This document shows positions 51,284 to 64,000 of a stretch of DNA of 64,000 nt, piece by piece. The notes beneath the pieces were generated by a model. That model was not told the DNA's origin. It worked only from the letters and a program-made list of their open reading frames with translations, and did not search any database. Every line of letters begins with the position of its first letter. Position 1 is the stretch's first letter. Source of the stretch: an uncultured Oscillospiraceae bacterium (GTDB lineage Bacteria; Bacillota; Clostridia; Christensenellales; CAG-138); contig CAZBBX010000002.1 of assembly GCA_964490325.1 (NCBI GenBank), positions 71,110 to 135,109 of the forward strand. Direction: 5' to 3'. The position numbers were made by a program, and so were the translations under genes.

Positions 51284-51290
51284 GTTTTGA

Positions 51291-51318
51291 TTGCAATATT
51301 TGAATTATCTGATATACT
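51291..51318 (+). promoter_or_regulatory. Possible internal promoter for the E2-like acyltransferase gene
   Basis: TTGCAA (51291-51296), 16 nt, TATACT (51313-51318), in the 81-nt plsX-downstream gap. Confidence 0.35.
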
Positions 51319-51364
51319 ATTGTCGAACGAAACGCGCAAGGCGCGCAAGCTAACGGAGGCGGGG

Positions 51365-52261
51365 ATGGAACAGATCCCGAAGAAACGCAAACGCAGATTT
51401 GGCGATCGCAGCGATGGCAGAAGGGTGCGTACCATTCCGCCCATGTCGCAGGTCGCTCCGTTCATCATGCCCAACAGAAACGGAGCAAGCAACTACTTTG
51501 ACTCCTCCATCGAGGTCACGGAGATCGAACGCTACATCCGCAAGAAACGGCGGGAAGGGCTGAAGGGCTTTGGCGTGATGCACGTCCTGCTGGCGGCCTA
51601 TGTTCGCGTGGTCTCGCAGCGTCCCGCGATCAACCGCTTTTTGGCGGGACAGCATATCTTTCAGCGCGACGATGTGATCGAGATCATCATGACCATCAAA
51701 AAAGAGATGTCCATGGAGGCGCCCGACACCGAGATCAAGGCCTACCTGACCCCCGCCGACACAGCGGACGTCGTGTACGAAAAGCTCAACAAGGTCATCA
51801 CCGAACAAAAGGAAGCTATGGGTTTGGACAGCAGCTTCGACAAAACGGCTTCCTTCCTCAACCACATCCCGGGCGTGATCCTCAAGTTCACGCTGTGGTT
51901 TTTGAAGCTGCTCGACTATTTTGGCCTGCTGCCCGCAAGCCTCATCAAGCTCAGCCCCTTCCACGGCTCCATCGTCGTCACCTCGATGGGTTCCTTGGGC
52001 ATTCCGCCCATCAACCATCACCTGTACGACTTTGGCACCGTACCCGTTTTCCTTGCCTTTGGCGCCAAGCGCAAGGCCTATGAGTTGGACGCGAACGGAC
52101 AGGTGCAGGAGCGCAAGTACATCGACTATCGCGTCACGACGGACGAACGCATCTGCGACGGCTTCTACTATGCCTCCGCGTTCAAGCTGATGAATTCCTA
52201 CCTCAAAAATCCCTTTATTTTAGACACGCCCGTAGAAGCGGTCGTGCGCGACATTCCCTAA
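51365..52261 (+). CDS. Stand-alone 2-oxoacid dehydrogenase E2 / CAT-like acyltransferase catalytic-domain protein
   Basis: ATG 51365 after GGAGG. No lipoyl or E3-binding domain. The C-terminal region VTTDERICDGFYYASAF aligns by eye with the E2 DHRxxDG active-site motif. Confidence 0.75.
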   Translation: MEQIPKKRKRRFGDRSDGRRVRTIPPMSQVAPFIMPNRNGASNYFDSSIEVTEIERYIRKKRREGLKGFGVMHVLLAAYVRVVSQRPAINRFLAGQHIFQRDDVIEIIMTIKKEMSMEAPDTEIKAYLTPADTADVVYEKLNKVITEQKEAMGLDSSFDKTASFLNHIPGVILKFTLWFLKLLDYFGLLPASLIKLSPFHGSIVVTSMGSLGIPPINHHLYDFGTVPVFLAFGAKRKAYELDANGQVQERKYIDYRVTTDERICDGFYYASAFKLMNSYLKNPFILDTPVEAVVRDIP

Positions 52262-52265
52262 AGCC

Positions 52266-52913
52266 ATGAAGGGCGGGCTGCGAAGATACTATCGTGCGCA
52301 CGCCGGGTTTATTCATGCCGTCCTGATCCTTGTGGCGATCGCGTTATTTACGCTGATCGCCTTTTTCTGCGGCCGCAGCGGCGAGGAAGTGAGCGCGGCT
52401 TCGCCCTCTCCTTCGCCCTCCGCCGAACCCACCGTACCGCCGCTGCGCTTCACACTTGTGCAGAATTGCTTTACGCTAAACGGACTGTCCTTGGAGGCCG
52501 AGGACGGGTATTACGTCATACGCGTTACGGAAAGCGGCGAAAGCTTGGGACGCTGCACACCCAAGATCAGCGATGGACGCGTGCAGCTGCTGTCCCTGTC
52601 GCTGCCTGCGCTCCGATATGAGCAAACGGATGCGCCGACCGAGCTGGAAAGGGAGCTGCAGCAGCGCGTCAGCGCGCAGCGAGAGCTGTTTATGAGTATC
52701 CTTTCGGCGCTGCGCAGCGCCGCCCTGACCCCAACGGACAGCAGCGACTCGCACGGCTTGGAGCATTATCAGATCCTGTTGAACGCCGTATTGGACGATG
52801 GCAAAAGTGAGAGCTGGGTCTATGGCAGCTATCGGTGCAGCTTGGAACGCAAGGACGATTTGGACGGCGGCGCGACCCTGCTGATCGACCTAAGCTACAT
52901 CGCCTCGAACTGA
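52266..52913 (+). CDS. Hypothetical membrane-anchored protein
   Basis: Starts 4 nt after the previous stop. One TM (FIHAVLILVAIALFTLIAFF), an SPSPSPSAEPTVPP linker, and no motif I recognise. Confidence 0.55.
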   Translation: MKGGLRRYYRAHAGFIHAVLILVAIALFTLIAFFCGRSGEEVSAASPSPSPSAEPTVPPLRFTLVQNCFTLNGLSLEAEDGYYVIRVTESGESLGRCTPKISDGRVQLLSLSLPALRYEQTDAPTELERELQQRVSAQRELFMSILSALRSAALTPTDSSDSHGLEHYQILLNAVLDDGKSESWVYGSYRCSLERKDDLDGGATLLIDLSYIASN

Positions 52914-52918
52914 CAGAT

Positions 52919-53974
52919 CTAGAATTCTCCGTCTAACAAACAACGCCGCATACGCCCCGCAAACGCAGTCAGGCGCTCCTCGATGGCAGGCAGGTGCAGG
53001 GCTGCGTTGGGTTCGTTTGCCGTCTCCGCAAGGCAAAAGTGTGGGTGCAGCATGAAGGTCTTGTTCATGGACAGCGCCCCCAAGACCTGCCGCGCCACAA
53101 GGTCGCCGCCGCTGTAGCCCGACACGATGATGGCGTAGACATACTTGTCGTTCAGCGGCGTCTTGACCAGCACGTTCGTGAGCCTGTTGATGAAGGCCAT
53201 GATGTTCGCGCTCACGCTGTCGTTGTAGTTGGGACACAAAAGAAGCAGCGCATCGGACTCCAAAAGTGTGGGAAACACATCCGTCGTCAGACTGCCGCCA
53301 TAGAAGCAGCCATCGTTGTGCGCATAGTGCAGACAGGTCTTATACGAGCAGCCCCGACAATCGATCAAAGCGCCATTCTGCAGGGATCTTGTCGTAACTT
53401 CTATCTCTTGCCCCAAGCGCTCGGCCACGGCGCAGCCCAACGCGTAGGTGTTGGAGGTGGCGTGCTCGGACGCGTGCAGCATCAAGACCCGCGCCGTTTC
53501 GCGCCTGACGGGGGCATAGTCCATCAGCCGCTGCGCCAAGTCGCGAACGGCAAGCTTGTATGCGTCAAGCAGGGTAACGCCTGCGTTCATCGACCGAATA
53601 TGAAAATTGTACAGACTGCCCGTGCCCTCAACGAGCGGCTTGCCCACCAGTAAAGCGCCCGCTCCGTTGGCCGCCAAAGCAAAGCGGCTTGCAAAGTCCT
53701 TGGTGAGAAACTCGCTGTTTGCATCCGTTACCATGCCCACAACGCAGGCGTTCAAGGCCGTTGGCGTCCCACGCAGTGCGATCAGGAAAAGCTCCGCCGC
53801 CGCCGAGCCGTTTCTGCCCAGTGAAAAGCAGAACAGCAGCCTTGCGCCCCTACCCCCGCCTTCCAACACCTCCTGCGGCGTCAGTTCCTTGGTGGGCAAG
53901 TGCAAGAGCGCCTCGTCAAGCACGGCGTTCAGCCGCGCCCCCGTATCCACACGCACCAAGATCAGTCTTTGCAT
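52919..53974 (-). CDS. Two-lobed flavodoxin-fold protein; the C-terminal lobe is NADPH-dependent FMN reductase / iron-sulfur flavoprotein-like
   Basis: C-terminal half: VLMLHASEH.TSNT..., CRGCSYKTC Cys cluster, LLLLCPNYNDSVSA. The N-terminal ~170 aa look like a degenerate second alpha/beta lobe. The start overlaps the upstream stop by 13 nt. Confidence 0.7.
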   Translation of the reverse strand: MQRLILVRVDTGARLNAVLDEALLHLPTKELTPQEVLEGGGRGARLLFCFSLGRNGSAAAELFLIALRGTPTALNACVVGMVTDANSEFLTKDFASRFALAANGAGALLVGKPLVEGTGSLYNFHIRSMNAGVTLLDAYKLAVRDLAQRLMDYAPVRRETARVLMLHASEHATSNTYALGCAVAERLGQEIEVTTRSLQNGALIDCRGCSYKTCLHYAHNDGCFYGGSLTTDVFPTLLESDALLLLCPNYNDSVSANIMAFINRLTNVLVKTPLNDKYVYAIIVSGYSGGDLVARQVLGALSMNKTFMLHPHFCLAETANEPNAALHLPAIEERLTAFAGRMRRCLLDGEF

Positions 53975-55209
53975 AGCTGCGCCAGCTCCTCCCTTGCGGC
54001 GTTCAGGCGCACGATAAGCGCATCAGGGAGAGGCCGCCGCTCGATGAGCGGTCCCAAGGCGGTCTCCTGCACGCGGCAGCCAAAGTACAGGCCGTCAAAG
54101 TACGCTGTCGCATCGAACGCTTCGCCGCGCAGCATCCGTAAAACGGAAAGGCAGCCCGATGAAAGTCCCGGCGCGATGAAGGGCTTGTAGCCAAGCTCGC
54201 GCACACGCAGGTTCGCTTCCCTTGTAAGGCGGGTGAGCTGTTGTGAAAAGGCGTCGTCATAGTCCTCATCCAAGGCGTTTGCCGCGACCAGTCCCGCTCC
54301 GTGCGGGCCGTAGACCCGTCCCGTGGAGAAGTCCCTGCCCGCCTTCCTTGCATAGTAGGCGGCTCTGCCGCGCATCACCCCCAAGCCAAAGCCGCGGATC
54401 TGTTCGGGCAGCAGGCCCAAGGCGTCGAACTCGCCCAGATCATTTTTGTTGGCGGTTAGGAAGGCGTCGCGGCACAGCAGATCCACGGGGTCGGACAGCA
54501 CCACAAAAAGTCCCGTATAGCCGACCTTCCGCGCAAGGCGCGCATAGGCGGCGACCAAGGGGCGATTGGCCTGCCACTGCGCAAGGCGTACATCCGTCTG
54601 CTCCGCTCCCAAGGGCGGCACGCCCCGCGTTGCGGCAAAGATGAAGACGTCGCCACTAAACAGTTCCGGCTCCTTGCACACGCGCACCAAGGGACGGCGC
54701 TCCCCTTCCGTCAGCTCGATAAGTTGATTCAGCTCCAATTCGTACCGTGCGCAGAGCTTTTCGTTGGGGTCAAAGATGCACAGCTCGTCCACAAGGCCGC
54801 TGCCTAAGAGAGTCAGTCCCCGCGCAAGCTCCGCACCCACATCGCCCAAGCCCGCCAGTTCCACGCGAAAGCCCGTTTTCTTGCGAAGGAGCCTGCGGCG
54901 CAGCACGGGCAGGGCATTTGAAAACGCCGTGTTGACAAGGCTTGCGCCCTTTTCATGGATCAAAGCCGCAAGCGCGGCGTTTAGGCGCGCCTCCCCTACG
55001 GGGGGCAGCAGCAGCCCCATGTCCTCCCGCTCGAACAGCTCCCGCTCATCGCGCAGCGCCGTAAGGCCGCGGAAACGCTTTGGATCGCGGTCTGTCAGGA
55101 ACGCAAGGGGCGCAAAGGGTTCGTCCACGGGTCTTGCTCCCTTTGGCACGGCGCCGTCAAGGGGGCAAAGGCACAGGCCGTCCATTGTAAAAAAGCGCAG
55201 ATCAAGCAT
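53962..55209 (-). CDS. LDH/MDH-fold dehydrogenase-like protein with a ~115-aa N-terminal extension
   Basis: Rossmann GLGDVG, DVRLAQWQAN (aligns with the TRLDLxxxN loop), VVLSDPVD (NPVD-like) and GPHGAG (GEHGDS-like). The start overlaps the upstream stop by 8 nt. Confidence 0.7.
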   Translation of the reverse strand: MLDLRFFTMDGLCLCPLDGAVPKGARPVDEPFAPLAFLTDRDPKRFRGLTALRDERELFEREDMGLLLPPVGEARLNAALAALIHEKGASLVNTAFSNALPVLRRRLLRKKTGFRVELAGLGDVGAELARGLTLLGSGLVDELCIFDPNEKLCARYELELNQLIELTEGERRPLVRVCKEPELFSGDVFIFAATRGVPPLGAEQTDVRLAQWQANRPLVAAYARLARKVGYTGLFVVLSDPVDLLCRDAFLTANKNDLGEFDALGLLPEQIRGFGLGVMRGRAAYYARKAGRDFSTGRVYGPHGAGLVAANALDEDYDDAFSQQLTRLTREANLRVRELGYKPFIAPGLSSGCLSVLRMLRGEAFDATAYFDGLYFGCRVQETALGPLIERRPLPDALIVRLNAAREELAQLCKD

Positions 55210-58200
55210 GGGGCGTTTCCTCCCGATACAGGCCGATGCGCCGCATCAACAGCAGATCCTCCTCCAAATAGGCAGAGGCGCGCTCGTCCCTGTTGTATTC
55301 CATTCCCGCGCCCTTGTCGGGCAGACGCGGACGGTAGATCGCCTCGGACAGCCGCTTGATGTCGAGCGTCTTGGAGAACGCTGTAAGATGCGTCTTTTCC
55401 AGAGCCGTCAGGATCTCCTTGGCGTTCACCAGCGCCGTATGCGACAGCTTATGCAGCGTCTTTTCGGAAGTGCCATGGATGTAGGAGGGGTATTTGTACG
55501 GCAGGATCAGGTTGATGGACGAGGGCAGGCGCTGAATGCTGCGGGGGCTTTCCACGCTGTCGCCGCCCAAGAAGGGGTACAGCAGGCTCTCGGTGAACCA
55601 GTACCGCATGTTGGGGATGAAGTACACGCAGTCCACCTTTCTGTTCTGCTGCCGCATCAGATCCTTGCCCTTGCCCGAAAGGATGCCCACCAGTATCTCG
55701 TCCACGGTCAGCTCCTCGCGCTTGAACAGGGGATCCAGCTTCTCCATGCGATAGCCGTTGTGCAACAGATCGTCCACCAAAATGACGGGACGGTCGAAGG
55801 AGCGGATCGTCTTGATCTGGCTTTGCAGGGTGGAATAGCCGGGGTACTCCGTGATGTCGAAGCCCTCGATGTTCGCATGGAACTGCTTGTTGGCGTGCAG
55901 CGTCTTTGTGACGGTGTGCGGGATGATCTTATTGGCAAGGATCTTGCCGTAGGGTACGCACATCTTCGGCCCCAGCACGCCCTCCGCCGTGTCCGCACCC
56001 ACGCCGTTATGCCTCTGTACCGCCTCGGTGAGCTGATCGTTGAGCAGCTCCGCCTCGAAAGACAGCAGCAGCTTGCCGGGATACAGCTCGGTCAGCACGC
56101 GGCGCAGACGCACGTTCGCCTCATCGATCGCCCTGCGGACGAGGGGCGCTGAGCGGTGCGGCTCCTTGATGTGCTGCAAAACGTCGTTTATCAGCACAAT
56201 GGGAAAGCGCATGTCCGTAAAGAGGATCGTGCGCTCCGTGTCGGGAACGCTCTCGTAGCCCGACAGCAAGAAGCAGTCGCGAAACTGTCGTCCCTCGTCC
56301 CGAAGCTCCGCAAGCGCATAGGTATAGTTGTCGCTCAGGCTGCGGGCGCAAAGCTCCAGCAGCAGCAGAGAGGCCTCCCTCTCGCCGCAGGCCGTGAGCG
56401 CGTCGATGACGAGCAGCTTGCCCGACACGCGCTCGCGCACATACTCGATGAGCGGCAGCTCACTTAGCTCATCAAACAGATCGTCCACATTTGCGGCATG
56501 GGCGCTGATACAGCCCAGCTCCTCCCCGTCGCCCCGCACAAGGCGTATGCTGCGCTTCTCCGTGCTGCGTCCCGACGAAAGCGCGGCCTCGCCCCGCTCC
56601 CAAAGGAAGCGCAGGCTCATCGGATCTGCAAGCTCTTTGTACTGCGGGGAACGCAGGTAGAAGCCGTATTCGTAGATGTACTCCTGCACGACGGGATCGA
56701 CCAGCATGGAGATGTCCAAGTCCTTGTCGATGGATTCGCGAATACGCGTGGAGCTGACGTCCTCATAGAAGGCGGGCAGGGACAGCGTGATCGTCTTGCC
56801 GCGGATGGCTGTTGGCAGAGGCGCGCTCTCCGATTCGCGCAGGAACAGCACATGGTTGTAGTCGGCCACGCCGCCAAGCTTTTGGTCGCGATAGGCGGAA
56901 GCGTGTGCCACCACGTCGCTGCCGACCACCAGATACAGCTCACGCTTTGGAAACAGCGACTTGAGCAGCCTTAGGTCGTTGTGATTGGCAAGGTTCACGG
57001 GGATCTCGTCGGGGAACACGCAGGCGTCGATGCAGTCTGCCGCCGCCATCTGCGCGATCTTTCTGCGCTGCAGCTTGGGCAGGGTACGCTTGCTCCAGGA
57101 GAACTCGTCGATCGCCAGAAACGTTTCAAAGCCCAACGCCGTAAGCTCCTGCGTGATGCGCTTGTGCCCAAGGGAGAAGGGGTCGAAGGTTCCCGGGAAG
57201 AACGCCGCGGGACGCGGGGCGGGATAGGCAAAATCGCCGTAGAGGACGCGGCTCTCCGTTGCAAAGCGGTACAGATGGTTGAGCATTGCCGCCGTGTTGT
57301 AACGGGTGAGGGTCTCCTCCCTTGGCTCGTCCAGCAGGGTCAAAAGCTTTTTTACGATGCGGGTGAAGATGGCGCGGCGGTTTGCCTGCGGGATGGCGGC
57401 GTTTGCAAAGATCTCGCGGCAAAGCACCAGCAGCGCCACGCGGTGGATCTCCTCGCGAAAATGCGCTACGCCCGTAAGCAGCAGACCGATGAGCCGCTGC
57501 GCAAGCGGCGTGTCGGGCGTGAAGTCCGCCTCCGCCGCCAGTCCCCCAAGAATGGCGCCAAGCGTCAACAGCGCAGCGCGGGCGCTCTTGGACAGGGACG
57601 AGCGCAAAAGCTGCTCCAGATACTCCACCGCCTCGTCGGTCTCCTTTTCGGGCAGACCAAGGATCAGCCGTCCCAGATAGGGGCCTATGAACTTGGAGAC
57701 CTCATACTGTCCCGTTTCGATCTCGCGGCTCAGATCGACGACGATCTCGTTTCGCTGATCGACCGTCAACAGGTCGCTGATGCGCATGAGTCCCTTCCCC
57801 GCCGCTTCGCGGGCGGGCAGATGCTCACTGACGCAGAGCACATTGGCAAGGTGCATGGCAACATGAAAGGCCTGCTCGGGCACGCGCTGCGCATATCCGC
57901 ACAGCAGCTCGATGTTGCAAAGCTTGATCGTCCAATGCACCGCGTTCTTGAGGTCGGAAAGGAAGATGGCGGCTATGTCCGCCTCCGTGGCGGCGTCCCC
58001 CGTCTCGATCTTCGTGGGGAACGACTGCGGCAAAAGCTCCCTTAGACGCGTAAAAAGCGCGTCGGGCAGTTTACTCTCCCACTCGGCATAGCAGCAGGCG
58101 GCGCAGATGCGTTCCTCCCTTTGATCGCTTTCGGCCAAGCAGACGAGCGCCTTTGCGCAGGCCTCCATATCCGCCGCCTCGTAATACTCCACGGGCAGGG

Positions 58201-59224
58201 AGAACGCCGCTGCATACAAAAGCTGCAAAGTCGGCTCCGCAGTGCAGAGCTTTTCGACAAGTACCCGCGCATACAGCCGCGCCCTGCCATGCTCACAGAA
58301 GGAAAAGAGGCTTTCCGTCACCACGCGCAGGGAGTTTTGAATGCGGGCGGCATGCTTTTGCGAGATCTTGTGATCGGGTTTGATCAGCTTGTCGAGATAG
58401 GAGCGCCACAGCTGCGCACCCTCCACAAGGATGCTGTCCAGAGCGGGTGCGACCCCGCCGCCCGAAACGGCTGCGGGCAGGCGCTTGCGATAGCCGGGGC
58501 CGCTGTTGGCAAGGATGCGTCCCATGATGCGTCCCGCCTGCCGTCTCACGTCCCCCGCGTGGTGCATCAAAAGCTCGTAGAGCAGCTCCAGCGCGGCAAG
58601 CTTGTTGGCGCGGGACATGTAGGTGACGTATTCCTCGATGGTGCGCAGATAGGTGCGGATGCCGTCTAAATTGCTTGCGTTGCGCACGGACTCCAGCAGC
58701 CGCTCAAAGGCGGGCCCCGACGCCAAGTAGTGCATGATGCGGATGTTGCTTTCCACCGTACGAAGGCGCAGCTCCTCTGCGGCCTCCTCGTGGGTCAGCA
58801 GCGCCGCATAGCGCGGCGAAACGGGCATACATTCGCTCTGCGCCGCGTCATCCCCTATCCCCAGTGAGCGCATGTACCCTTCAAAGTCCTTGAGCTTGCT
58901 GAACACCAGCGCATAGCGCGTCCTTTTTGCCTCGTCCACGTTGGCGAGCTTGGAAAGGATGATGCGATAGCCCTCGTTGAGCGTGACAAAGCGCATATGC
59001 TCCTTGCCCGCTTCGTCACGAAAGCCGCGCACACGGAAGTCCGCATAGATGAGCAGGAGCGATTCGACGGTCAAATTCTCGAACTCAAGATCCCAAGTGC
59101 TGTGATTTGCGGCGATGTGCGCGATGCGCTCCATGCCGCCGTCGACCAGCCACTTGTGCGTGTAGTAGTAGTGCAGATGCGGGGTGAGAGGCAGCTCATC
59201 GCCGCGGCAGCCGAACTTTCCCAC
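55202..59224 (-). CDS. Giant multi-domain protein, downstream fragment: rest of the HD domain, helical repeats, NadD-like nucleotidyltransferase, alpha/beta segment, PRTase-like C-terminus
   Basis: The ORF opens inside the HD motif (..SHD-VGKF..). FFPGTFDPFSLGH and VSSTRIRE are nucleotidyltransferase signatures. RPVILVDDLLHNGYR is a PRPP-loop-like motif. It is continuous with 59240-59844 once one G is restored at 59239-59242. Confidence 0.8.
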   Translation of the reverse strand: MGKFGCRGDELPLTPHLHYYYTHKWLVDGGMERIAHIAANHSTWDLEFENLTVESLLLIYADFRVRGFRDEAGKEHMRFVTLNEGYRIILSKLANVDEAKRTRYALVFSKLKDFEGYMRSLGIGDDAAQSECMPVSPRYAALLTHEEAAEELRLRTVESNIRIMHYLASGPAFERLLESVRNASNLDGIRTYLRTIEEYVTYMSRANKLAALELLYELLMHHAGDVRRQAGRIMGRILANSGPGYRKRLPAAVSGGGVAPALDSILVEGAQLWRSYLDKLIKPDHKISQKHAARIQNSLRVVTESLFSFCEHGRARLYARVLVEKLCTAEPTLQLLYAAAFSLPVEYYEAADMEACAKALVCLAESDQREERICAACCYAEWESKLPDALFTRLRELLPQSFPTKIETGDAATEADIAAIFLSDLKNAVHWTIKLCNIELLCGYAQRVPEQAFHVAMHLANVLCVSEHLPAREAAGKGLMRISDLLTVDQRNEIVVDLSREIETGQYEVSKFIGPYLGRLILGLPEKETDEAVEYLEQLLRSSLSKSARAALLTLGAILGGLAAEADFTPDTPLAQRLIGLLLTGVAHFREEIHRVALLVLCREIFANAAIPQANRRAIFTRIVKKLLTLLDEPREETLTRYNTAAMLNHLYRFATESRVLYGDFAYPAPRPAAFFPGTFDPFSLGHKRITQELTALGFETFLAIDEFSWSKRTLPKLQRRKIAQMAAADCIDACVFPDEIPVNLANHNDLRLLKSLFPKRELYLVVGSDVVAHASAYRDQKLGGVADYNHVLFLRESESAPLPTAIRGKTITLSLPAFYEDVSSTRIRESIDKDLDISMLVDPVVQEYIYEYGFYLRSPQYKELADPMSLRFLWERGEAALSSGRSTEKRSIRLVRGDGEELGCISAHAANVDDLFDELSELPLIEYVRERVSGKLLVIDALTACGEREASLLLLELCARSLSDNYTYALAELRDEGRQFRDCFLLSGYESVPDTERTILFTDMRFPIVLINDVLQHIKEPHRSAPLVRRAIDEANVRLRRVLTELYPGKLLLSFEAELLNDQLTEAVQRHNGVGADTAEGVLGPKMCVPYGKILANKIIPHTVTKTLHANKQFHANIEGFDITEYPGYSTLQSQIKTIRSFDRPVILVDDLLHNGYRMEKLDPLFKREELTVDEILVGILSGKGKDLMRQQNRKVDCVYFIPNMRYWFTESLLYPFLGGDSVESPRSIQRLPSSINLILPYKYPSYIHGTSEKTLHKLSHTALVNAKEILTALEKTHLTAFSKTLDIKRLSEAIYRPRLPDKGAGMEYNRDERASAYLEEDLLLMRRIGLYREETPHA

Positions 59225-59844
59225 ATCGTGGCTGAGCGCCCCGCAGACAGCAGCGGCAGATCGGTTGCCACCCCCGCAAGTGCCAAGAGCCTGCCAAAGT
59301 GCAGGGCAAGGTTGTGAACGCCCAGCACATGCGCCCCCGTGTCGAAGTTGGTGGCGTCCGAACAGATGCGCAGAAGGATCAGAAAATCATCGTCATAGAC
59401 CAGCTTTTGAAAGCGCCTGTACTCCCCCGCCACCGCGCTTTTGGAAAGCTCCGTATCGTCAACGTCGCGCATGGTCCGAAGCGGATCGAAGGGAGCGCCC
59501 TCCTCCCTTGCCAACGCGCAGCGGCAAACATCTAAAAGCAGCTCGACCGCATCGTGCTGCGCCTGCGTGAGCGAAAGACCCTCCTCAGTCGGATACAGGC
59601 GCTCTGTGAGCGCATCGTAGGCAAGACGGACAAGGCGCTTTTCATCGATCTGCGTATCGTCAAGCAGGGGCAGGCAGAGCTTCGCCGCAAAAAGTCCGTC
59701 AAAGGTTCCGTTTGCCGCCGCCTCGTCGATGCGCATAAGGAACGCCGCTTCGCTGCCGAAGGCTCGCGCAAGCATGACTGCAAGCTTTGTGTCGCGAAAG
59801 CGCTCTGTCAGCTTTGTTCGTTCCGTCGCTATGTCGTATCGCAT
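59071..59844 (-). CDS. Giant multi-domain protein, upstream fragment: N-terminal region and start of the HD domain, read out of frame after about 59240
   Basis: First ATG at 59844; the track start at 59895 is a TTG with no RBS. GAHVLGVHNLALHFGRLLALAGVATDLPLLSAG is the first HD-domain helix pair. The sequence after 59240 in this frame is low-complexity nonsense. Confidence 0.7.
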   Translation of the reverse strand: MRYDIATERTKLTERFRDTKLAVMLARAFGSEAAFLMRIDEAAANGTFDGLFAAKLCLPLLDDTQIDEKRLVRLAYDALTERLYPTEEGLSLTQAQHDAVELLLDVCRCALAREEGAPFDPLRTMRDVDDTELSKSAVAGEYRRFQKLVYDDDFLILLRICSDATNFDTGAHVLGVHNLALHFGRLLALAGVATDLPLLSAGRSATMWESSAAAAMSCLSPRICTTTTRTSGWSTAAWSASRTSPQITALGILSSRI

Positions 59845-59922
59845 GAAGACTGCCGCCCTTTCATCCGCGTATCGATGCAAAACAAGCCTCTGCAAGGAAG
59901 TGCGAACACAAATTTTAGATAT

Positions 59923-59951
59923 AGTATACCGAATTGCCGTTATAAATGCAA
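59923..59951 (-). promoter_or_regulatory. Sigma-A type promoter for the giant-protein operon
   Basis: On the minus strand: TTGCAT (59951-59946), 17 nt, TATACT (59928-59923), in the 57-nt gap after the TVP38 gene stop. Confidence 0.5.
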
Positions 59952-59952
59952 G

Positions 59953-60696
59953 TTACTGTCCGTCGAAAACGTTCTCCGTCTCGCCTGCTTTTTCGTTGAC
60001 GGCGTCACCCTCCGACAGCGCCAACTGCTTTTGCTCCCGCCGCGTGCGCCATTTTTCCTCTAATTTTTTGTTCAGCAGAATGCCGCCGAGCGCCAGTACC
60101 GCAGAGATGGCAAAGTAGACGATCGTCATTTTCCAGTTGCCGTCGTACAGGGAAGCCCCCGCAAGCGTGGAGGTTATGACGGAGGGGATGCGCCCCAGTA
60201 TGGCCGCCGCAAAGAAACGCTCGGGACGAACGGGTATGAAGGGGCCGAAATAGGTCAGCACGTCCTTGGGCGTGCCGGGGATGAGAAAGAGGATCACCAC
60301 CAAGCGGTACGCCTTTTTGGGATCCTTGAGGAAACGAAATTTATCGAACTTTTTGTTGTTTTCGATGCTCTTTGCGCCCAGCAGTCGCGTGCCGTAATAG
60401 ATGCTCACCGTGCCGATGCCTATCCCCAGCAGGCAGACGGCAAGTCCCCACCACGCCCCGTACAGGACGCCGGCGGCGATCTCCAGCGGCTCTCCCGGAA
60501 GGAAGGCGACAAAGATCTGTAACAGCTGCAAGCCCAAAAACACGGCGATGCTCCACTTTCCAAAGCCGCGTATGGTCTCCGCAAGATCTCCGCTGACAAG
60601 CAGCGGCCATGCCTTCACAACGCCCCAAGCGATAAGCGCCAAAAGTGTAAGGCACAGCAAGATCTTTCCAATCAAAATCGCTGTTTTTTTGTGCAT
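59953..60696 (-). CDS. TVP38/TMEM64 (DedA-related) family membrane protein
   Basis: FLPGEPLEIAAGVLYG motif and multiple TM segments. ATG 60696 gives MHKKTAILIGKILL. Confidence 0.8.
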   Translation of the reverse strand: MHKKTAILIGKILLCLTLLALIAWGVVKAWPLLVSGDLAETIRGFGKWSIAVFLGLQLLQIFVAFLPGEPLEIAAGVLYGAWWGLAVCLLGIGIGTVSIYYGTRLLGAKSIENNKKFDKFRFLKDPKKAYRLVVILFLIPGTPKDVLTYFGPFIPVRPERFFAAAILGRIPSVITSTLAGASLYDGNWKMTIVYFAISAVLALGGILLNKKLEEKWRTRREQKQLALSEGDAVNEKAGETENVFDGQ

Positions 60697-60851
60697 CCTT
60701 TGCCCCGTATCGGAGCCTCGCCCCCTCGCGAAGCATTCGTGTCCATTTATAAAAGCGGTGAGGCGGCGCCGATCTGTCGCTGTTGTCACGCTCACCGCCC
60801 GATCCTTTGTTTATTGCTCCCCCGCGTCATGCCCGCCAAGGCGGTCGCGGC

Positions 60852-62127: not shown

Positions 62128-62784
62128 CTACTGCTCGCAGGCAGAGACGATCTTCTTGGCGATCTCGTCCATGCTGAGAAGCTTTCCATCTGCCATGCAG
62201 CCGATGACCCGCGCCTCTTTGATGCGCTTTGCATACAGCAGATACTTGCTGCGTGCACGCGCCTGCAGGGAATCGTGCGCTTCGTATACGTCCTTTTCGT
62301 TGCCGACGTATTCGCGATAGCCCTTCTTGTCCACGTTGTGCGCCGCATCGTCCGTGTCCATGTCCAAGATCAGGTAGCGGTCGGGCTTGGGCAGACCGAA
62401 ATGCACATGCTCCAATTCGAGCACAAAGTCCAAGATGTCCTCCTTGTCAAGGTCGCAGTCGCGAATGCCTTGGTACACGGCGTTGGACAGCACAAAGCGG
62501 TTGATGAGCAGCACGTCGCAGTCCTTATAGTCGAGCTTTTGGAACGCCTCAAAGCGATCCAACGCAAACCACAGCGCCATGCTCTTGCCGTCCACGGTAT
62601 CCGCCGCAACGCCGTCGCGCGCACTGAGGTAGCGGCCGACATAGCCGCCAAAGAAGCTTTCATAGCAGGGGAAGGACAGCTCCATCACGCGCTTGCCCTC
62701 GGCGCGGTATTTCTGCGCCAATCTAGCCATCTGCACGCTCTTGCCCGTGCCGTCGATGCCCTCAAAGGCGATGATCTTTGTCAC
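62128..62784 (-). CDS. Thymidylate kinase-like protein (type I / eukaryote-like sequence pattern)
   Basis: GTG 62784 (GTGA overlap with the dapL stop). P-loop FEGIDGTGKS, SFP..., LWFALDRFE, LINRFVLSNAVYQG and GLPKPD are collinear by eye with human TMPK. The track ORF to 63162 is an artefactual extension. Confidence 0.75.
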   Translation of the reverse strand: MTKIIAFEGIDGTGKSVQMARLAQKYRAEGKRVMELSFPCYESFFGGYVGRYLSARDGVAADTVDGKSMALWFALDRFEAFQKLDYKDCDVLLINRFVLSNAVYQGIRDCDLDKEDILDFVLELEHVHFGLPKPDRYLILDMDTDDAAHNVDKKGYREYVGNEKDVYEAHDSLQARARSKYLLYAKRIKEARVIGCMADGKLLSMDEIAKKIVSACEQ

Positions 62785-64000
62785 TGCAAACCTCCCTTGA
62801 TGCGTTCCATGGCCTTGATGGTGTTCTCCTTGGTCGCAAACGCCGTCATGCGCAGATAGCCCTCGCCAGCCGCGCCAAAGCCCGCCCCGGGGGTGGCGAT
62901 GATGCTGCACTTTGCCAACAGTCGGTCGAAGAAGCCCCAGCTGTCGCCGTCGGGTACGCGGATCCAAACATAGGGGGCGTTGACCCCGCCATAGACCTCG
63001 TACCCCGCGCCGGCCATGGCGCTGCGGATGCGCTTGGCGTTGTCCATGTAGTACCCAACGACCTGCAGGATCTCGGAATAGCCCTCGCCGTAGGCGGCCG
63101 CCGCGCCCACCTGCGTGATGTAGGAAACGCCGTTGAACTTGGTGGACATGCGGCGCTTCCAAAGGTCGTTTAGGCGCACGCTGCTGCCGTATTCGTCCCG
63201 AACGACAATGTCACGCGGCACCACGGTGTACGCGCAGCGCGTGCCGGTAAAGCCCGCCGTCTTGCTCATGGAGCGGAACTCCACCGCGCAGGCCTTGGCG
63301 CCCTCGATCTGGTAGATGCTGTGCGGTTTGTCGTCCTCTGAGATATACGCCTCGTAGGCGGAATCGTACAGAAGGAGCGTTCCCGTTTCAAGGGCGTACT
63401 CCACAAAACGCTTGAGCTGCGCCTTTGTGGGCATGACGCCTGTGGGATTGTTGGGATAGCAAAGATAGATGACGTCCACGGGAGTGGCGGGCAGCTCTGG
63501 TACAAAGCCGTTCTCCGCTGTCGCCTTAAGGTACACGATGCGTTCATAGCCGTGCTTTAATTCGTCATAAGCGCCGCTGCGGCCGCCCATGACATTGGTG
63601 TCCACATAGACGGGATAGACGGGATCCAGCACCGCAATGCGGGCGTCCCGTGAGAACAGCTCCTGAAAGTTGCCCACGTCGCACTTGGCGCCGTCGGAGA
63701 CGAAGATCTCGTCGGGGGAAAGCTCCACGCCGCGGGAAAGATAGTCGCGCTTTAGGATGGCCTCGATGAGGAAGTCGTAACCAAAGGCGGGCGGATAGCC
63801 GTGAAAGGTCTCGGCCGCCCCCATCTCCTCCACCGCACGATGCATGGCGCGAATGACGGACGGCACCAGCGGCTGCGTCACATCGCCTATGCCCATCTTG
63901 ATAAGCTCCGCCGCAGGATGCGCCTCGCGATAGGCGTTCGTCCTTTTATCCATCTCGTAAAACAGATAGCTGCCGCGCAGCTTTCCGTACTCTCCGTTAG
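62781..64000 (-). CDS. dapL: LL-diaminopimelate aminotransferase (DapL type); the 5' end runs off the window
   Basis: LRGSYLFYE...IKMGIGDVTQPL, with the PLP Lys in RSMSKTAGFTG. The frame stays open upstream of ATG 63953 to nt 64000. Confidence 0.85.
   Translation of the reverse strand, partial: NGEYGKLRGSYLFYEMDKRTNAYREAHPAAELIKMGIGDVTQPLVPSVIRAMHRAVEEMGAAETFHGYPPAFGYDFLIEAILKRDYLSRGVELSPDEIFVSDGAKCDVGNFQELFSRDARIAVLDPVYPVYVDTNVMGGRSGAYDELKHGYERIVYLKATAENGFVPELPATPVDVIYLCYPNNPTGVMPTKAQLKRFVEYALETGTLLLYDSAYEAYISEDDKPHSIYQIEGAKACAVEFRSMSKTAGFTGTRCAYTVVPRDIVVRDEYGSSVRLNDLWKRRMSTKFNGVSYITQVGAAAAYGEGYSEILQVVGYYMDNAKRIRSAMAGAGYEVYGGVNAPYVWIRVPDGDSWGFFDRLLAKCSIIATPGAGFGAAGEGYLRMTAFATKENTIKAMERIKGGLQ

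Follow-up and report, generated by a model that had tools for sequence, protein, structure and literature searches.

The 64,000-nucleotide stretch of DNA analysed here (hereafter the window) comes from an uncultured Oscillospiraceae bacterium and carries, on its minus strand, three overlapping genes that form a conserved cassette of Clostridia. The first gene encodes a giant protein containing a probable HD phosphohydrolase domain, HEAT-like helical repeats, a class-I nucleotidyltransferase (NT), a GNAT-like fold and a type-I phosphoribosyltransferase (PRTase)-like fold (PRT). The second gene, g2, encodes a protein of the lactate/malate dehydrogenase (LDH/MDH) superfamily, and the third, g3, a protein with an FMN-reductase-like lobe. 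The individual folds are all known, but no counterpart has been described for the architecture of the giant protein, for its private GNAT+PRT module or for the complete cassette. The domain content and gene linkage suggest that the cassette is probably a nucleotide-conjugate pathway or sensor dependent on phosphoribosyl pyrophosphate (PRPP) and ATP, with redox partners.

Distribution and gene order of the cassette

The family was searched for in a scan of one genome per species. Relatives are encoded in at least 574 species-representative genomes, and the best 80 of these at least 574 loci are all from Clostridia, including Oscillospiraceae, Christensenellaceae, Lachnospirales (with Anaerotignum and Blautia), Anaerovoracaceae, and Sedimentibacter. 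Clustering of all open reading frames (ORFs) from 81 loci showed that only three families travel together, namely giant, g2, and g3. The order giant, then g2, then g3 on one strand was found in 63 of the 67 loci that have at least 2.5 kb of DNA downstream, with overlaps that are usually 4–13 nt. The four loci without g2 and g3 have unrelated genes downstream (GGDEF, an AMP-binding enzyme, Fe-ADH, and others), and the possibility that these are replacement partners was rejected on that ground. The cassette is kept as a unit in dozens of genomes at 28–50% protein identity, and the sequence comparison indicates that it is conserved far beyond chance.

A shorter subfamily of 1,065–1,220 aa, at 28–32% identity, appeared among the matches of the GNAT+PRT profile search described below; it has no HD domain and keeps the HEAT-NT-GNAT-PRT arrangement. 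Two members of this subfamily are complete genes, and at both loci (L082, 731–6250; L083, 129–5113) overlapping LDH-like and FMN_red-type genes follow, the last gene of the L083 locus being cut off at the contig edge. Their LDH-like partners are 306–312 aa in length, are without the N-terminal extension of g2, and were matched by Pfam Ldh_1_N. Down to 28% identity the short proteins keep FFPGSFDPFSIGH, VSSSVIR, VPFG, PNTVTK, and DDLL(N/H)KGYR. Since the HD-less subfamily keeps both partners, the core of the system is HEAT-NT-GNAT-PRT together with the LDH-like and FMN-reductase-like proteins, the HD domain being an accessory. The grouping of the three genes, which had been proposed from the window sequence, thus holds in the great majority of loci as well as in this distant subfamily. 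A Christensenellaceae chromosome (OY762290.1) carries two complete, diverged cassettes (L013 and L040, at ~7–31 kb and 3,581–3,606 kb), and paralogy therefore exists within the family.

Gene layout and state of the giant gene

The giant gene is present in the window as two minus-strand ORFs in different frames, 59895..59071 and 59224..55202. Contig L001 from another sample is 98.55% identical to the window over 9.86 kb. At the site where this contig has GCGGCGGCGCTC, the window has GCGG-GGCGCTC, so that a C is absent between window positions 59241 and 59240. The missing base was dropped from a GCG repeat and is not a slip in a run of G. Restoring it gives a protein of 1,547 aa that starts at ATG 59844 and is 100% identical to, and 100% covered by, the intact public protein P0001. 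The sequence-only reading had described a single long gene from 59844 to 55202 after a 1-nt correction, and both L001 and P0001 bear it out.

Codon-level comparison of the giant gene in the window with the L001 copy revealed 24 synonymous and 5 nonsynonymous differences. The five residue changes all fall within residues 24–162 (window 59844–59360), upstream of the frameshift, and the stretch that holds them (residues 1 to ~160) is poorly conserved. The last 1,340 codons, past the break, show 0 nonsynonymous versus ~20 synonymous differences between the two strains. Purifying selection acts strongly on the giant gene. The cluster of the protein at 90% identity contains four intact 1,547-aa copies from different assemblies, and also the broken 1,290-aa form of the window, sourced from NCBI and from a Logan assembly. 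Another conspecific copy, on a 41,704-bp ENA contig of the same species, is split elsewhere into 1,125 and 412 aa (P0123 and P0124), with the break near residue 1125–1135. Breaks in this long, GC-rich gene recur among assemblies. A programmed frameshift was ruled out, since the gene is uninterrupted in conspecific copies and the break in another assembly lies elsewhere. Given the intact conspecific copies and the exclusively synonymous changes past the break, the sequences indicate that the gene is functional in the species and that the break arose either as an error specific to the sample or as a very recent mutation.

The giant gene could instead be a recent pseudogene in this genome, with a cassette that is non-functional here. 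A 1-nt deletion relative to conspecifics is consistent with such decay. The identical 1,290-aa product is also present on Logan contig L086 (run SRR8925823) and is listed under both NCBI and Logan sources on two contigs, so that more than one assembly shows the break. These two assemblies may nevertheless come from the same reads, at least four conspecific assemblies are intact, and another is broken elsewhere, as sequencing or assembly errors would be. In addition, no nonsynonymous change has built up downstream of the break. Loss of the gene in this genome is accordingly regarded as somewhat doubtful.

The stop of the giant gene and the start of g2 overlap by 8 nt (55209–55202, ATGCTTGA), with GGGAGGA located 8 nt upstream of the g2 ATG, and the stop of g2 overlaps the start of g3 by 13 nt; both overlaps are as previously read. 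The promoter-like site before the giant gene lies directly after the stop of an upstream VTT/DedA-like gene and matches 8 of 12 consensus positions. A consensus promoter scan of 52000–60800, which needs at least 9 of 12 matches, returned no site. The earlier description of this promoter as near-consensus was therefore too strong, and a promoter at 59951–59923 is best called plausible from its sequence. No terminator-like site was found after g3, where a convergent gene ends 5 nt away, and Rfam gave no riboswitch or leader in the window or upstream of the giant gene in six loci. Coordinates of all features are given in Table 1.

Table 1. Features of the cassette in the window (residue numbers refer to the restored giant protein or to the partner protein named)
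Feature	Window positions	Strand	Basis or detail
Giant gene, 1,547 codons after restoring one C	55202..59844	minus	as given, 2 ORFs
N-terminal helical region and probable HD phosphohydrolase, residues 1–330	58856..59844	minus	motif, Pfam in homologues, AlphaFold
HEAT-like helical repeats, ~520 aa, residues ~350–870	57236..58798	minus	Pfam in homologues
Class-I (HIGH-type) nucleotidyltransferase, residues ~880–1066	56648..57208	minus	Pfam CTP_transf_like; PGTFDPFS(L/A)GH, VSSTRIR
GNAT-like fold, residues ~1078–1225	56171..56614	minus	AlphaFold and Foldseek
Type-I PRTase-like fold, residues ~1234–1460	55466..56146	minus	AlphaFold and Foldseek
C-terminal helical extension, residues ~1461–1547	55205..55465	minus	helices H396–425 and H458–478, as numbered in the model
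g2, LDH/MDH-superfamily dehydrogenase-like, 415 aa	53962..55209	minus	PDB profile
g3, 351 aa	52919..53974	minus	C-terminal FMN-reductase-like lobe; N-terminal lobe 1–~160
Promoter-like site	59923..59951	minus	-35 TTGCAT (59951–59946), 17-nt spacer, -10 TATACT (59928–59923); read from sequence

Domains of the giant protein

Motifs and Pfam matches of the giant protein were checked in a panel of 25 aligned homologues. Every fold named in the sequence-only reading was recovered by Pfam, PDB profile, or Foldseek, and the motifs quoted there are all present and are invariant or nearly so across the panel.

The nucleotidyltransferase domain matches Pfam CTP_transf_like at residues 882–1037 (32.3 bits versus a cutoff of 21), as do all 25 homologues. 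The counterpart of the (H/T)xGH signature is S891-x-G893-H894, with Ser replacing His/Thr, and in the counterpart of ISSTxxR residues S1031, S1032, T1033, I1035, and R1036 are invariant. Both PGTFDPFS(L/A)GH and SSTxIR are invariant in the homologues. NadD model TIGR00482 aligns end to end (E 1.7e-9) with 38 bits versus a cutoff of 112.45, and other NCBIfam NadD models reach 22–34 bits versus cutoffs of 150–315. Weak PDB profile matches of the domain are to PPAT and NMNAT. The residues that we take to contact nicotinate mononucleotide in NadD, 'SYT' and a Trp, read VNIA and Tyr in the giant protein when compared by eye. On these matches the domain is assigned as a NadD/PPAT-like class-I nucleotidyltransferase and not as a NadD orthologue.

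The C-terminal part of the giant protein (residues 1066–1547) was modelled by AlphaFold with a predicted local distance difference test (pLDDT) score of 90.9 and a predicted template modelling score (pTM) of 0.91, and Foldseek splits the model into two folds. The first fold resembles FeeM, GCN5, NatD, the GNAT-like domain of ICL2, and others (E 5e-4 to 3e-3, probability 1.0). The segment that had been noted as present and left unnamed beyond 'alpha/beta' is thus now identified as a GNAT-like fold. No Q/RxxGxG/A motif for the pyrophosphate of coenzyme A (CoA) is present in this domain, where by eye the consensus after strand 4 is RxLLNELLARSL. The second fold resembles UPRT (6wn8), XPRT (2fxv and 1y0b), OPRT, APRT, and PurR (E 1e-4 to 3e-3, probability ~1.0), with target-normalised template modelling (TM) scores of 0.4–0.48. 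It contains a pyrophosphate (PPi)-loop-like MCVPYGK, a conserved loop PNTVTKxLHxxK, and a variant of the PRPP loop, LVDDLLH(N/K)GYR, in which the acidic pair D1358-D1359 is invariant and is followed by L-L-H-(N/K)-G-Y-R. The usual PRPP-binding motif has four hydrophobic, two acidic, and two hydrophobic residues ahead of T/S-G-x-T, and H-(N/K)-G-Y-R here takes the place of the phosphate-binding T-G-x-T. Matches to NCBIfam APRT and HPT models are weak (E 0.006–0.011), and Pfam Pribosyltran matched 0 of the 25 homologues at E≤0.05. The type-I PRTase-like block of the sequence-only reading stands at the level of the fold; the family match and the T-G-x-T signature do not accompany it. The helical extension that follows is conserved together with the PRT-like domain. 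A HMMER profile of the GNAT+PRT region was compared exhaustively with 1.84 billion representative proteins and gave only 508 matches, 211 of them at E≤1e-30. The best 150 of the 508 are full-length family proteins or shorter fragments, and canonical PRTases were not reached. Among the matches listed, the GNAT+PRT module thus appears essentially confined to the giant-protein family.

The N-terminal region contains the conserved residues H172, H206-D207-x-G-K-F, H225, H248, D252, and D269, with H172, H206-D207, H225, H248, and D269 invariant in the homologues. Pfam HD matches the giant protein of the window at 14.9–16.7 bits (E 0.03), below the cutoff of 22, and matches 20 of the 25 homologues at E≤0.05 (best 4.4e-6). 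An AlphaFold model of residues 1–345 has a pLDDT of 91.5, and its top Foldseek matches are the HD proteins YpgQ, 1xx7, and YhaM (probability 0.85–0.96, E 0.14–0.7). An N-terminal HD domain is therefore supported by the motif and by most homologues. The sole NCBIfam match in this region is to the DVU_1551-family NTP transferase (E 0.0016), and no YqeK model was among the NCBIfam matches at E≤0.1. An analogy to the nadD/yqeK gene pair had been drawn for the HD and NadD-like domains. It survives at the superfamily level only, with the NadD cutoffs missed, YqeK unmatched, and the HD domain absent in the short subfamily; since a whole subfamily is without HD, the pairing of HD and NadD is not the core of the system. 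The helical repeats match Pfam HEAT or HEAT_EZ in 7 of the 25 homologues (best 8e-7), and a weak PDB profile match of the region is to CAND1 (E 0.03).

Partner proteins

Conserved positions of g2 include GLGDVG (120–125), D147, DVR (206–208), SDPVD (239–243), R282, and GPHG (301–304), with G120-x-G122-x-x-G125, R208, R282, and H303 invariant or nearly so. The N-terminal ~115 aa are poorly conserved. A profile of g2 against PDB sequences gave L-LDH, L-HicDH, and MDH at E 1e-7 to 1e-3 (L-LDH 3d0o, 9.5e-8), and the NCBIfam L-LDH model was matched at E 3e-4 with 20.3 bits, missing its equivalog cutoff of 303.55. The LDH/MDH fold first read from the window is confirmed by this profile and these motifs.

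Residues 162–313 of g3 match Pfam FMN_red with 56.6 bits versus a cutoff of 24. This lobe contains a 4-Cys motif, DCxGCxYxxCx(8)CxYGG (205–227), in which C206, C209, C214, and C223 are invariant and which, as a compact motif after the first strand, may correspond to the [4Fe-4S]-binding motif of iron-sulfur flavoprotein (Isf). The search for solved structures by sequence gave no close match for g3 (one match, E 0.22). A two-lobed flavodoxin/FMN-reductase protein had been proposed; the C-terminal lobe is as described, and the N-terminal lobe is unlike it. An internal duplication of two flavodoxin lobes was accordingly rejected (hhalign probability of 0.4, lobe versus lobe). Selenocysteine in g3 was also rejected, as the in-frame stops came from extending two ORFs past the true stop.

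Genomic neighbourhood

Apart from its own three genes, those found most often beside the cassette encode glutamine-hydrolysing asparagine synthetase (12 loci), glutamine synthetase III (GS-III; 9 loci), and glutamate dehydrogenase (9 loci), all confirmed by Pfam. The sequence-only reading did not include this recurrent association. Such nitrogen-assimilation genes adjoin the cassette at 22 loci, about a third, in at least four arrangements and in several Clostridia lineages; these counts are uncorrected for phylogeny. The arrangements are asnB immediately upstream in the same orientation, asnB and glnN downstream in the same orientation, an oppositely oriented asnB with glnN downstream (Anaerotignum, Lachnospirales), and a divergent gdh upstream (Anaerovoracaceae). 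The linkage suggests that the substrate or product of the cassette may be tied to the node of 2-oxoglutarate, glutamate, glutamine, aspartate, and asparagine. T-box leaders precede the cassette-flanking asnB in L033 (7884–8126), L056 (16139–16381), and L076 (19051–19293), with the specifier AAC (Asn) read in L033; they are the only Rfam matches and belong to asnB. The asnB gene ends 53–62 nt ahead of the giant gene in L033, L041, and L054, and the gap in L033 and L041 has a promoter-like TTGGAA-17-TGgTAAAAT, the giant gene's own promoter-like site.

This context raises the possibility of a writer/eraser regulator of nitrogen assimilation analogous to GlnD/GlnE. The HEAT repeats would dock GS-III, AsnB, or glutamate dehydrogenase, the nucleotidyltransferase would adenylylate the docked protein, and the HD domain would take the adenylyl group off again. 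PRPP or (p)ppGpp would be sensed by the PRT-like domain and acyl-CoA by the GNAT-like domain, while g2 and g3 would report 2-oxoacid or redox status. The repeated position of the cassette beside asnB, GS-III, and gdh is consistent with this, as are the long HEAT scaffold and the atypical PRT and GNAT motifs. In addition, PRT-fold sensors (PurR, and XPRT with bound ppGpp) are among the Foldseek matches, and the GNAT-like domain of ICL2, another match, was crystallised with acetyl-CoA. Yet class-I HIGH-type nucleotidyltransferases are known to adenylylate small molecules or carboxylates and are not known to modify proteins, and the supposed eraser is missing in a whole subfamily that keeps all else. 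The fold type of the transferase and the dispensable HD domain weaken the case for a regulator of this kind. Two-thirds of the loci, including the window, are also without a nitrogen-assimilation gene nearby, no PII or AmtB genes were seen, and the GlnR/TnrA operator TGTNAN7TNACA was not found upstream of 63 giant genes. We consider such a regulator unlikely, though a serious alternative.

The neighbours of the cassette in the window are PlsX, a U32 peptidase, a VTT/DedA-like protein, and a GT4 glycosyltransferase. Two plus-strand genes that follow plsX, 51287–52261 (324 aa) and 52266–52913 (215 aa), run towards g3 and end 5 nt short of it. All conspecific contigs keep both genes, and the sole similarity of the 324-aa product, to the 2-oxoacid dehydrogenase acyltransferase domain, lies below threshold. 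Elsewhere in the window, the minus-strand ORFs 62128–63162 (thymidylate-kinase-like) and 62781–63953 (class I/II aminotransferase) overlap by ~380 nt. The former has 344 aa with the domain at residues 133–297 only, and its true start is probably further downstream. Among other loci, the gamma subunit of 2-oxoacid:ferredoxin oxidoreductase adjoins the cassette in two Blautia loci (L078, 8947–9543; L080, 8767–9396), and adenylosuccinate synthetase (L032, 17075–18346) and glycerate kinase (L020, 8652–9770) do so elsewhere; these are enzymes of the central carbon/nitrogen node.

Defence systems often involve very large proteins and domains of the HD, nucleotidyltransferase, and PRTase types, and a nucleotide-centric anti-phage or conflict system, in which the giant effector makes or degrades a signalling nucleotide, was considered on this account. 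PADLOC gave no significant match (best E 0.004–0.009). The cassette is single, is vertically distributed, and has housekeeping flanks with no mobile-element genes, its gene order is stable, and the cassette is under strong purifying selection. A defence role is thus highly improbable.

Proposed function

We tentatively propose, at somewhat less than even confidence, that the cassette is a Clostridia-specific metabolic module which acts on a ribosyl-phosphate/adenylyl conjugate and receives redox input. From the folds, motifs, linkage, selection, and context described above we infer the chemical steps and the kind of metabolite as follows. The PRT-like domain would use PRPP to form a ribose-5-phosphate conjugate of a small acceptor, and the NadD/PPAT-like domain would use ATP to adenylylate the phosphate (or a carboxylate) of that product. 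The GNAT-like domain may bind or transfer an acyl or amino-acyl group. The HD domain, if present, would recycle or trim the product. The LDH/MDH-like protein and the Fe-S/FMN protein would supply or process a substrate of the 2-oxo/2-hydroxy-acid type, or provide reducing equivalents. A metabolic module is favoured because catalytic-type residues are kept down to 28% identity, the partners are obligatory and of enzyme folds, and selection is purifying. A pathway also fits better than a pure switch, since two enzyme-fold partners always accompany the giant protein.

Several observations weigh against this proposal. The PRT loop is atypical and Pribosyltran is unmatched, so that this domain could be a ligand binder and not a catalyst. 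The CoA-binding motif is missing from the GNAT-like domain. A simple metabolic enzyme would not usually carry ~520 aa of HEAT repeats, which suggest protein or nucleic-acid partners. Linkage to nitrogen genes holds in only about a third of loci and not at the window, and the related genomes in which it was counted are not independent observations. Finally, the pyridine-base PRTases of NAD metabolism are of type II and not of type I. For this reason, and because the domain misses the NadD equivalog cutoffs, a route that is literally of the NAD type (quinolinate or nicotinate PRTase, then NadD) was judged unlikely.

The direct adjacency of the nucleotidyltransferase and GNAT-like domains is also compatible with a ligase like citrate lyase ligase (CitC), which joins a GNAT-like and a cytidylyltransferase-like fold; identification of the GNAT-like fold opens this reading, which the sequence-only account had not considered. 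The nucleotidyltransferase would then make the acyl-adenylate of a carboxylic acid, such as the 2-hydroxy or 2-oxo acid of g2, and the GNAT-like domain would pass the acyl group to an amine or thiol, possibly of a PRT-bound phosphoribosyl compound, giving an amide or thioester and not a dinucleotide. In having a GNAT-like fold but no CoA P-loop, the domain resembles enzymes of the FeeM type, whose acyl donors are not CoA thioesters, and the amide-forming AsnB and GS-III are common neighbours. The best sequence matches of the nucleotidyltransferase, however, are NadD, NMNAT, and PPAT and not citrate lyase ligase, the domain order is opposite to that of CitC, and the cassette has no conserved gene for an acyl carrier or acceptor. 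A CitC-like ligase therefore seems quite improbable.

A more specific form of the metabolic module can be put forward as a speculation with a low chance of being right. The cassette would make, and where HD is present also destroy, an undescribed ribosyl-phosphate/adenylyl conjugate that is gated by a 2-oxo/2-hydroxy-acid dehydrogenase and an Fe-S flavoprotein. The conjugate would be a new cofactor or second messenger coupling PRPP/ATP status to the 2-oxoglutarate-glutamine-asparagine node. If this is true, it would represent a Clostridia-specific nitrogen-status pathway unrelated to GlnD, GlnE, and PII. Many carriers are abundant gut Oscillospiraceae, Lachnospirales, and Anaerovoracaceae, and the broader chemistry proposed above, if true, would mean that dominant gut anaerobes have a nucleotide-conjugate pathway or signal that is new. 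It would possibly be linked to ammonia assimilation, of which little is understood beyond the GlnD/PII paradigm. Among the carriers that can be cultured are Anaerotignum neopropionicum DSM 3847, Anaerovorax odorimutans DSM 5092, Hominibacterium faecale, Faecousia intestinalis, and Dysosmobacter.

Comparison with known systems

In databases the homologues are named either 'cytidyltransferase-related domain protein' or 'hypothetical protein'. No description of the giant/g2/g3 family was found among solved structures, NCBIfam families, PADLOC models, or papers, in line with the earlier statement that no characterised function was known for this architecture, and among solved structures the giant protein has by sequence only the weak PPAT and NMNAT matches. 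Literature searches with the domain combinations, database names, and neighbours returned nothing relevant. One preprint (10.1101/803486) speculates only that Isf proteins make dipicolinate and is not about this family.

Comparison of the single domains with their nearest known relatives gives likenesses and differences in each case. The nucleotidyltransferase resembles NadD, NMNAT, and PPAT in its end-to-end alignment with NadD and in the motifs GxFDPxxxGH and SSTxIR; it differs from NadD in missing the equivalog cutoffs, in the Ser that opens the HIGH motif, and in being embedded in a 1,547-aa protein. The PRT-like domain shares with type-I PRTases and PurR the fold, the DD pair after a hydrophobic strand, and a PPi-loop-like VPYG, whereas it reads DDLLH(N/K)GYR in place of DDxxxTGxT and is not matched by Pribosyltran. 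The g2 protein has the Rossmann GxGxxG, the loop Arg (DVR, at the mobile-loop position), xPVD, and the second Arg of LDH, MDH, and L-HicDH, and by eye the His of its GPHG aligns with GEHGD of LDH. It differs from the LDHs in having Asp for Asn140 (SDPVD) and an extra, variable N-terminal ~115 aa, and matches them at E 1e-7 only. The C-terminal lobe of g3 is above the Pfam FMN_red threshold and in this resembles NADPH-dependent FMN reductases. From these and from Isf it differs by its CX2CX4CX8C spacing and by an extra N-terminal lobe of ~160 aa.

At the level of architecture, the giant protein is like CitC in having GNAT-like and nucleotidyltransferase folds side by side in one chain. It differs from CitC in the reversed order, in having no sequence match to the citrate lyase ligase family, and in the extra HEAT, PRT-like, and HD domains. 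GlnD, SpoT, and CCA-adding enzymes also combine a nucleotide transferase with an HD domain in one polypeptide, which suggests the making and breaking of one bond. Their transferases, in contrast, are of the pol-beta or RelA fold, while that of the giant protein is HIGH-type, and the HD domain of the giant protein is dispensable in a subfamily.

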